Part shown: in pieces, positions 32,442 through 40,015 of the stretch
Numbering within the stretch: position 1 is the first letter of the stretch
Layout of the letters: every line of letters starts with the position of its first letter
Assembly (NCBI GenBank): GCA_022013205.1
Contig: JAKLQT010000198.1
Coordinates: 1-55,769 of the forward strand
Reading direction: 5' to 3'
Length of the DNA stretch: 55,769 nt
Origin: Candidatus Omnitrophota bacterium
GTDB lineage: Bacteria > Omnitrophota > Gorgyraeia > B26-G9
Program-made: the position numbers and the translations under genes
The notes under the pieces: generated by a model
What the model was told of the DNA's origin: nothing
The model's database searches: none
What the model saw: the letters and a program-made list of their open reading frames with translations, nothing else

Positions 32442-32469
32442 TTAATGTGGCCGCATTATCTTGTGTGGT

Positions 32470-32655
32470 GCATTCTTATCGTCTTCATGCGAAACAGATG
32501 AAGAGAATCTGTTTCGGCGGCTTTAATCAGCTTATTTTACATGCCTGCCCCGTCGATTCATAGGCGTGGGGATGTTAAAATAAGCTGATTCCCTCGGAGA
32601 CTGACAGCCAGCCTCGACTAGCTCAGCTAGGCGGGGACTGTCAGTCGAGAATGCC
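32470..32655 (+). repeat. Multi-hairpin structured element (copy 1, + orientation); candidate ncRNA or MITE-like repeat
   Basis: Hairpin 1: 32490-32499 (cgaaacagat) pairs with 32507-32516 (atctgtttcg). Hairpin 2: 32525-32542 (aatcagcttattttacat) pairs with 32572-32590 (atgttaaaataagctgatt). Hairpin 3: 32593-32607 (ctcggagactgacag) pairs with 32638-32649 (ctgtcagtcgag). Homologous to the reverse complement of 39665-39800. Confidence 0.55.
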
Positions 32656-32797
32656 TGTGCCCCGAAACATATAGTTTATTGTGTAGGGGTAAGCTAAAAT
32701 AGATTCTCTTTAGCTCTTTGAAATACTACTCGATATCTTTTGAACATAATCCCTCCCCCCGTTCACTCACCGATTAAAAAAAAGTTAATTTTTTGTG

Positions 32798-32826
32798 TTG
32801 ACATATTGTTTTAAATAAAGTATATT
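32798..32826 (+). promoter_or_regulatory. Sigma70-type promoter of the dcw cluster (Pmra-like)
   Basis: TTGACA at 32798-32803, 17-nt spacer, TATATT at 32821-32826, located 36 nt upstream of the mraZ ATG. Confidence 0.6.
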
Positions 32827-39447: not shown

Positions 39448-39464
39448 TAGCTGATGGCTCATGG
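39437..39464 (+). repeat. Heptad array (4 x CTSATRG-like) overlapping the murF stop codon
   Basis: ctcatgg ctgatag ctgatgg ctcatgg. The murF TGA at 39445-39447 lies inside unit 2. Confidence 0.7.
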
Positions 39465-39664
39465 GAAAGTAGCGAGTAAATATTGAGCGTGCAAATAAAC
39501 GTGTATAGTTTTTTGAGCGAGCGAAGAAAACGTTCGTCCTTCATCTCTAACTCCTAAATAGATTTATAGAAGGGAAGCTAGAGGCAGCAGTATATACACT
39601 TCAAGGGAGAAAAAGTTATTTAAGAGGTGACTCGGGACAAACAGTCAGGTGAAATTGTATTTAC

Positions 39665-39800
39665 TCATTCTCGACAGCCGTCCATGGCTGCCTGCGAGGT
39701 AATCAGTCGATTATTACACATCCTTGTAAATCGACTGATTAAAATCCGTAAATGCAATTTCCCCTATCTGTTTGATGAGCGAAGAAAAAGTGTTTTCTAT
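39665..39800 (-). repeat. Structured element copy 2 (inverted orientation relative to 32470-32655)
   Basis: Reverse complement reads TCTTCGCTCATCAAACAGATAGGGG..TTTTAATCAGTCGATT[loop]AATCGACTGATTACCTCGCAGGCAGCCATGGACGGCTGTCGAGAATGAG. It has the same order of boxes and hairpins as copy 1 (TCTTCATGCGAAACAGATGAAGAG..TTTAATCAG..CTGATTCCCTCGG..CAGCC..CTGTCAGTCGAGAATGCC). Confidence 0.55.
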
Positions 39801-39949
39801 CTGGGAGTTGGGGTTCGTCTCAATGCTTGTCCGCCATACGTTGTGGAGGGAGCAAAGCGAATGGTCTTCGTCCTTCGTTTTGAAACGTAATAGGCAGAAC
39901 GCAATACTCACGACGCAATACTGTTTTTTAATAACAGGCAACTGGTTAA

Positions 39950-39991
39950 CTCATAACTCATAACTCATAATTATTAACTAGTAATTACTAG
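39950..39991 (+). repeat. Heptad array (3 x CTCATAA plus 3 degenerate units) just upstream of mraY
   Basis: ctcataa ctcataa ctcataa ttattaa ctagtaa ttactag. Near-duplicate of the 37965-38006 array. Confidence 0.8.
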
Positions 39992-40015
39992 TAACCGGAA
40001 GATGCAGGCGGGAAA

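Follow-up and report, generated by a model that had tools for sequence, protein, structure and literature searches.

We provide evidence that two loci at the dcw cluster of an Omnitrophota genome are very probably insertions of a single MITE family, non-autonomous and 234 to ~295 bp in length. One of them, copy A, lies upstream of the dcw promoter (32494 to 32776, plus strand), and the other, copy B, lies in the murF-mraY spacer (39545 to 39813, minus strand). Both fall within a window of 55,769 bp, the whole stretch of DNA that was analyzed, which is contig C170 of the genome that we searched (G000; 2.71 Mb, 290 contigs, 39.8% GC). The arms of such an element would form a long basal stem, and its apex would be a 144-nt three-way junction bearing two CA(N)GGAUG hairpins. 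Terminal repeats, duplications of 7 or 8 bp, and presence or absence between congeners show that the elements move as DNA. The explanation that we favor overall, and hold to be moderately likely, is a MITE family with a TwoAYGGAY-type core that represents a candidate CsrA module. TwoAYGGAY has been an orphan motif since 2010; the family described here displays a mobility mechanism directly, in its terminal repeats, duplications, and empty sites, and it retains the same folded apex on different transposon ends and in many phyla missed by the Rfam model. The case adds a demonstration of mobility, one core on two chassis, nested loop insertions, and a cross-phylum census.

The sequence-only reading of the window had proposed an element at 32470-32655 with a homologous inverted copy inside the dcw cluster. 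The homology is real: the reverse complement of 39640-39810 has the same ordered boxes and folds well. Nor is this a two-copy coincidence, as searching the genome with a covariance model (R1) recovered ~50 element copies. Sequence searches of the genome place pieces of the element on many contigs. The GTCGAGAATG box occurs 39 times against ~5 expected occurrences, often within 200 nt of a contig end, and numerous element copies sit at contig ends; the copies break the assembly. For the purposes of annotation, the element accounts for long non-coding spacers and contig breaks in the Omnitrophota MAGs studied here.

The hallmarks of DNA transposition are clear in this family. Elements of the B subfamily are 234 bp long and end in inverted repeats of 23 bp (GTAATGGGTGAGTTACGGGGG... 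/ ...CCCCCGTAACTCACCGGTTAC); at C100 (CATGCGGG) and C159 (AACAATTC) they are flanked by perfect target duplications of 8 bp. The A subfamily (~295 bp) has other ends (CCCCAACTCCTAGATAGAA... / TTCTAT..CAGGAGTTAGGG) and 7-bp target duplications (ATAAGGC, AGTTTAA, and (G)ACTAGA, at C132, C51, and C109); all of these duplications were called by hand on sampled copies. The element ends may also be written GTAATG..GAGTTACGGGGG or CCCCAACTCCTAGATAG. Terminus patterns occur 26 and 35 times in the genome versus 0 to 1 time for control patterns, the A-type left terminus accounting for 35 occurrences versus 0 for its control. The insertions are, moreover, polymorphic: in four congeners (G001-G004), no element occupies the site upstream of mraZ. 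The flank of the C100 copy is unique to the genome and offers no empty site for comparison. The possibility of a MITE, one of several that the sequence-only reading had left on the table, is therefore the one borne out by the terminal inverted repeats, the target duplications of 7 to 8 bp, the empty sites, and the ~50 copies.

These features set the family apart from REP/BIME and IS200/IS605-derived palindromes, which have no terminal inverted repeats and no target duplication and insert beside a fixed short motif; the element has terminal repeats and 7- to 8-bp duplications of varying sequence. A closer comparison is with the Correia (CREE/NEMIS) and ERIC MITEs, which are small, non-coding, and intergenic, have terminal inverted repeats and target duplications, and give rise to transcripts that fold as long hairpins. 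The element shares these traits. As RNA, the whole B element is predicted to fold into a single rod tipped by the three-way junction (−112.6 kcal/mol, z = −12.3). In ordinary MITEs, however, the ends are the conserved part. Here the ends vary by subfamily, whereas compensatory changes preserve the internal three-way-junction apex from phylum to phylum. In the fragmented assemblies that we searched, no autonomous transposase with matching ends was found, all terminus matches being short elements; because the assemblies are fragmented, the partner transposase could be unassembled. GTAA ends and an 8-bp duplication are features of IS66, and a link to that family was considered and dropped, since the IS66-type transposase fragments in G000 and G003 have no element ends. 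These IS66-family (PF03050) fragments or genes lie at G000:C44:926-1225 and G003:C210:151-930. Viral contigs gave 0 matches to the core pattern, so there is no phage vector signal.

Alignment of all copies revealed a 144-nt core common to all subfamilies, although their termini differ. This core consists of a long basal stem, P1, and two hairpins, P2 and P3, with CA(N)GGAUG loops, arranged as a three-way junction. Read from its 5′ end, it begins with P1 (~25 bp), followed by a single-stranded strand, CGG(A/C/G)UUU(U)AA, and by hairpin P2 with its CA(N)GGAUG loop; a second strand, UUNCCUCG, leads to hairpin P3, in which a CUC/GAG helix and a 3-nt bulge precede an 8-bp stem capped by a (U)GGA loop, and a third strand, CGAGAAUGAG, leads into the return strand of P1. 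The copies fall into at least eight sequence variants, whose stems vary yet remain complementary and whose junction strands and loops are constant. The two GGA loops are separated by ~40 nt. GGA is near-invariant in the loops of both P2 and P3 among 26 copies from relatives, and the P3 GGA is invariant in all copies of the bacterial family that were found without GGA as a search term. Subfamilies differ in the loops themselves: A-type P3 loops read AUGGAU or AUGGAC, in agreement with AYGGAY, P2 loops are often AAGGAU, and P3 of B- and C-type elements reads CAGGAU. RNAalifold, applied to the alignment of relatives, also places an extra helix in which the AUU of the CGGAUU strand pairs with the AAU of GAGAAUGAG (columns 38-40/119-121; A-U 15 and G-U 9, with two invariant U-A pairs; in copy B, approximately 39745-39743 with 39669-39667). 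This helix would lengthen P1 beyond an internal GG/GA loop and would close the three-way junction. Two other readings of the junction were rejected by inspection: a hammerhead, as CUGAUUA is part of the stem of one subfamily, and a k-turn, as G8-C27 and A9-U26 are Watson-Crick pairs.

Compensatory substitution keeps this core folded in at least ten phyla. Within the genome, 24 of the 41 base pairs are compensatory (RNAalifold, 18 copies), a number that rises to 30/41 in the 26 copies from relatives, where 90.1% of paired cells are complementary versus 35 to 41% in slid controls and 0 of 500 shuffles reach the observed value. In a set of 88 copies that spans at least 10 phyla and 37 to 78% GC, 35/41 pairs are compensatory; here, P3 was fixed by the search pattern and P1 and P2 were free. 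R-scape-like tests were carried out by hand on samples. The earlier suggestion that selection acts on structure is supported by these data, in which covariation is strong. The observation on which it had been founded, that stem interiors differ between the two copies in the window, proved to be of mixed origin: true compensatory changes do separate the subfamilies, but the differences in copy A stem partly from inserts of 27, 28, and 38 nt.

The strand on which the core folds can also be read from the substitutions. G-U pairs outnumber A-C mismatches by 60:16 in the genome and by 61:20 in relatives; because of this excess, ~3 to 4 to 1, the GGA strand is the folding strand, whether as RNA or as single-stranded DNA. 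Fold energy does not consistently favor the GGA strand (−112.6 versus −101.2 kcal/mol for the B-type element, and −76.8 versus −87.8 kcal/mol for copy B), so the choice of strand rests on the G-U and A-C counts.

A folding strand that might be DNA raises the prospect that the family is purely selfish, with core hairpins that work as DNA, either in single-stranded intermediates of transposition or replication or in recognition by an enzyme. Under such a scenario the core would act neither as RNA nor through CsrA, and the mobilizing enzyme would make its contacts with the bases of the GGA loops. We consider this scenario unlikely, but it draws on several of our observations. The transposon hallmarks are clear, and G-T is better tolerated than A-C in DNA hairpins too, so the strand bias is compatible with single-stranded DNA. 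Consensus scans detected no promoter or terminator inside the element and nothing of terminator type in the copy B region. Among copies between co-directional genes (the sampled loci and the window, scored by hand), one is sense and four are antisense; orientation is not tuned to the neighboring genes, and the mixed or mostly antisense arrangement suits a selfish element. The absence of a csrA association in the Nitrospirota sample, described below, points the same way. Duplications of 7 to 8 bp and terminal repeats, however, suggest mobilization by a cut-and-paste DDE enzyme, which works on double-stranded ends and needs no internal hairpins, and the loop motif matches a known RNA-binding site. 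Furthermore, the same core is carried by elements with at least two kinds of termini, which differ in duplication length, and occurs in at least 10 phyla; it is therefore conserved independently of any one transposase.

Of the two copies in the window, copy A is the more degraded, and its true limits differ from those first proposed. The three complementary segments noticed between 32470 and 32655 are present where they had been placed, and a 201-nt stretch that spans them folds at −83.4 kcal/mol (z = −4.6). Homology with other copies, however, starts only at 32494, from which point copy A is 96% identical to G000:C251:1838-1951, and the right terminal inverted repeat ends at 32776. Comparison with the empty sites of the four congeners identifies 32443 to ~32493 as native spacer, including the GCGAAA that precedes copy A and also stands in the congeners' empty sites. 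With native spacer to 32493 and homology from 32494 to the right repeat, copy A is therefore a left-truncated (5′-truncated) subfamily D element on the plus strand, without a left terminal repeat and with three nested mini-hairpins. The left repeat was lost together with ~20 nt of native spacer, and copy A has no target duplication because its left end is deleted. The 10-bp hairpin that had been proposed at 32490/32507 is an artifact of cutting the element short and joins native GCGAAA to bases of the element; the family structure and the minimum-free-energy fold of the full element (32485-32780) instead pair 32495-32518 with 32692-32717 as basal stem P1, the latter strand being placed by the same fold and by alignment with C251. 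Of the other two stems proposed, the 18-bp stem is hairpin P2 and the bulged stem hairpin P3.

Both of these hairpins are interrupted in copy A. P2 (32527-32588) has its CATG|GATG loop split by a 27-nt GC-rich mini-hairpin at 32544-32570, an insert also present at C251:1888-1916. P3 (32592-32649, CCTCG...CGAG) has its GGA loop split by a 28-nt mini-hairpin at 32608-32635, and the identical insert occupies the same position in C141 and C88, which are copies of other subfamilies. Directly after the invariant GAGAATG lies an optional extra hairpin of 38 nt (32654-32691, CCTGT and a GC stem), found at the same position in C105 and C127 and, as a shorter variant (cctgtccgccaatctttatggcgga), in eight other copies. 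The right terminal inverted repeat (CCCTCCCCCCGTTCACTCACCGATTA, 32751-32776) matches the right ends of B and D elements (...CCCCCGTAACTCACCGGTTAC). The R1 score of copy A is only 50.7 bits. With its left end gone and both GGA loops interrupted, copy A is a dead relic, lodged without harm between a native terminator and the dcw promoter. That terminator-like hairpin (32450-32469, plus strand), found by a terminator scan after the upstream gene and outside the element, is kept in the four congeners without the element. The promoter (mraZ; TTGACA-17-TATATT, 32798-32826, plus strand), 22 nt downstream of the element, is kept in the same congeners. We observed in addition that the terminator-like hairpin, which is 3′ of an O-antigen-ligase-like gene, shows compensatory differences among the four congeners (GGACCACACTATCTTGTGGT).

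Copy B, by comparison, is a full-length subfamily A element of 269 bp with both terminal repeats, inserted antisense to murF and mraY. It folds at −76.8 kcal/mol (z = −5.0), with its left repeat (CCCCAACTCCCAGATAGAAAACAC, 39790-39813) paired to its right repeat (...CTATAAATCTATTTAGGAGTTAGAG, 39545-39568). The 144-nt core (P1, P2, and P3; 39634-39778) scores 135.4 bits with R1 on the minus strand and 35.5 bits on the plus strand. P2 (39703-39738) carries the loop ACAAGGAUGU, with its GGA at 39721-39723, and P3 (39670-39699) reads CCUCG-CAG-GCAGCCA-UGGA-CGGCUGUC-GAG, with its GGA at 39681-39683. Three of the four congeners (G001, G002, and G004) lack copy B in the murF-mraY spacer, and the fourth, G003, carries a copy of a different subfamily at another point of the same spacer. 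Given this independent insertion in G003, the spacer acts as a place where repeats tend to land. The spacer itself (39448-40015 in the window) is hundreds of bases long, is hypervariable in all five congeners, and contains heptad-like arrays (TAACTCA..., CGTCCTT...).

The positions of the two copies might be taken to indicate that the element evolved to control the dcw cluster, as a dedicated sRNA gene or as a terminator or insulator. One copy does separate the dcw promoter from the upstream gene, a second lies inside the cluster, and the structure is very stable. We nonetheless regard such a regulator as highly improbable. The four congeners without copy A retain both the promoter and their own conserved terminator hairpin, copy B is missing from three of the four, copy A is truncated with its loops disrupted, and the ~50 copies in the genome adjoin unrelated genes. 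There is no U-tract terminator within the element, which speaks against the terminator or insulator that had initially been entertained. The idea of a new small RNA fared somewhat better, in that the core is RNA-like and akin to TwoAYGGAY; it is, however, not wholly new, and the locus bears no sign of a dedicated sRNA gene. Neither copy is likely to be a tuned dcw regulator, and both are likely passengers. The case cautions that hairpins of this kind should not be taken for local dcw regulators.

As for the identity of the core, the initial failure to match it to a known RNA family was confirmed by searches against Rfam. At the gathering threshold, no family matches over the whole window, and no family covers any of 14 cross-phylum loci. 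At E ≤ 10, copy A, copy B, and a high-GC relative return only chance miRNA and snoRNA matches, and even at this cutoff there is no ribozyme or riboswitch match. The TwoAYGGAY motif (RF01731; Weinberg et al. 2010, PMC2864571) is a basal stem with two sequential hairpins that have AYGGAY loops, and it is multi-copy (bioRxiv 10.64898/2026.09.22.753630). The same preprint describes an extended Pseudomonadota form and copy-number variation that hints at mobility, and leaves open the link between mobility and regulation. Binding of CsrA/Rsm to the motif was proposed in 2014/15 (PMC4333381). RF01731 has no match in the window or the genome, either at its gathering threshold of 43 bits or at E ≤ 10. 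In a Spirochaetes MAG, the model aligns end to end at 38.7, 34.6, and 32.6 bits, below the threshold of 43, and does so at exactly the R1 loci; on this basis we regard the family as related to TwoAYGGAY, though divergent.

We consider it probable that the element family is akin to TwoAYGGAY; by the Rfam criterion, it is not a member. Both have a basal stem with two sequential hairpins, terminal loops of A(Y)GGAY type, tens of dispersed copies per genome, variable extra hairpins, and a variation in copy number like that of mobile elements. The element family differs in its invariant junction strands (CCUCGNAG and CGAGAAUGAG), in its explicit terminal inverted repeats and 7- to 8-bp target duplications, in its presence in Omnitrophota and many other phyla unlisted for the motif, and in its loops, which are often CAAGGAUG or CAGGAUG rather than strict AYGGAY.

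It is possible, although we would not put it at an even chance, that CsrA binds the two GGA hairpins, which are candidate sites recognized from sequence. CsrA has a SELEX consensus of RUACARGGAUGU, and the repeats of CsrB read CAGGAUG. The loops ACAAGGAUGU, CCAUGGAUGG, and ACAGGAUGU fit this site consensus. A copy transcribed on its GGA strand would present two GGA hairpins ~40 nt apart that a CsrA dimer could bind, and the element might act as a portable CsrA-binding or titrating module. The genome encodes a csrA (80 aa, 93.8 bits; G000:C93:413-655) that lies directly downstream of, and overlaps, a FliW-like gene (G000:C93:1-655, L031); we know of no sRNA antagonist in the FliW-type CsrA system. 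The likeness to CsrB, CsrC, and RsmX/Y/Z is that several GGA loops are displayed in hairpins in a CAGGAUG-like context and that the genome of the element has csrA. Those RNAs, however, are each the product of one dedicated gene with its own promoter and terminator, whereas the element is a set of dispersed mobile units with only two sites per unit, and no sequence or model match connects them.

The distribution of csrA among carriers provides mixed testimony. Within the class, the element is found only in the window's family (f1), and a bona fide csrA is present in 15/17 genomes of that family and in one of the 43 other families sampled. In other phyla, 40 of the 48 element-bearing genomes have csrA versus 3 of the 14 control genomes, and eight element-bearing MAGs show none. 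In a sample of 61 Nitrospirota genomes (the class of a Thermodesulfovibrio-labelled MAG), csrA is found in 8/14 genomes with the element versus 29/47 without it. All six genomes of this sample with at least six copies have csrA, a hint that large copy numbers are confined to csrA carriers. In the Nitrospirota sample, csrA is no more frequent with the element, and there is no association.

These data bear on a further scenario, in which the core is a structured RNA with a function that does not involve CsrA and the junction strands CGGNUU, CCUCGNAG, and CGAGAAUGAG are its active part; it might serve to dock a different RNA-binding protein, to direct RNase III processing or stabilize a transcript, or it might fold in the manner of a ribozyme. 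The most invariant bases do include these junction strands and not the loops alone, RNAalifold adds the conserved AUU/AAU helix that closes the junction, the P2 loop is non-GGA in some phyla, and eight carriers have no detectable csrA. The lack of any match to an Rfam ribozyme or riboswitch, even at E ≤ 10, weighs on the other side, as do the invariance of the P3 GGA in copies of the bacterial family recovered without GGA in the search and the presence of csrA in most carriers, and we are inclined to doubt a non-CsrA function somewhat more than we doubt a purely selfish element.

The reading that we prefer, a mobile TwoAYGGAY-type core as a candidate CsrA module, would have its widest consequences across phyla. 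Among 60 relatives, R1 matches occur only in the window's family, in 4 of its 12 genera, at 1 to 27 copies per genome. A cross-phylum search with a 26-base pattern of P3 returned at least 111 loci, nearly all of which R1 matches at full length, from 37 to 78% GC. Desulfobacterota (including the cultured Desulfurivibrio dismutans AMeS2 and Desulfurivibrio sp. D14AmB), Nitrospirota, Nitrospinota, Latescibacterota, Gemmatimonadota, Planctomycetales, Spirochaetes, Melainabacteria, Handelsmanbacteria, Competibacteraceae, and Omnitrophota are among the matches listed. We tentatively suggest, as a hypothesis that is more likely wrong than right, that the TwoAYGGAY-type core is a portable CsrA site that spreads horizontally on different transposon chassis in at least 10 phyla. 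If so, CsrA hairpins would be seeded beside arbitrary genes, or CsrA would be collectively titrated, and the CsrA regulon would be rewired, in FliW-type bacteria among others. CsrA binding and strand-specific expression are testable in cultured carriers such as Desulfurivibrio. Some Nitrospirota copies (L083 and L109) have a P2 loop of CCGUGAUGG, with GUGAUG rather than GGAUG, and keep GGAUG in P3; if CsrA is the ligand, such variants would show only one canonical site.

Two further observations concern how these elements are built up and broken. The mini-hairpins are 25 to 38 nt long and GC-rich, start with CCWG, and occupy three fixed sites in the core: the P2 loop, the P3 loop, and the position after GAGAATG. 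Elsewhere in G000 they are found at C141:4256-4290, C88:6872-6902, C251:1888-1916, C105:2549-2587, and C127:1411-1452. Identical inserts at the same position in different subfamilies, those in P2 and P3 destroying the GGA loops, point to either site-specific insertion of a tiny secondary element or recombination between copies. Solo left halves of A-type elements also occur in G000, at C113:2969-3045 (L062, ~200-277), on C121 (L065, ~200-273), and in the C241:7142 region (L064, ~2162-2090, minus strand). Two of them stop exactly at GCGGATTTT and one at GCGGATTTTAATTAG, after which unrelated host sequence follows, and breaks may recur at the junction that precedes hairpin P2.
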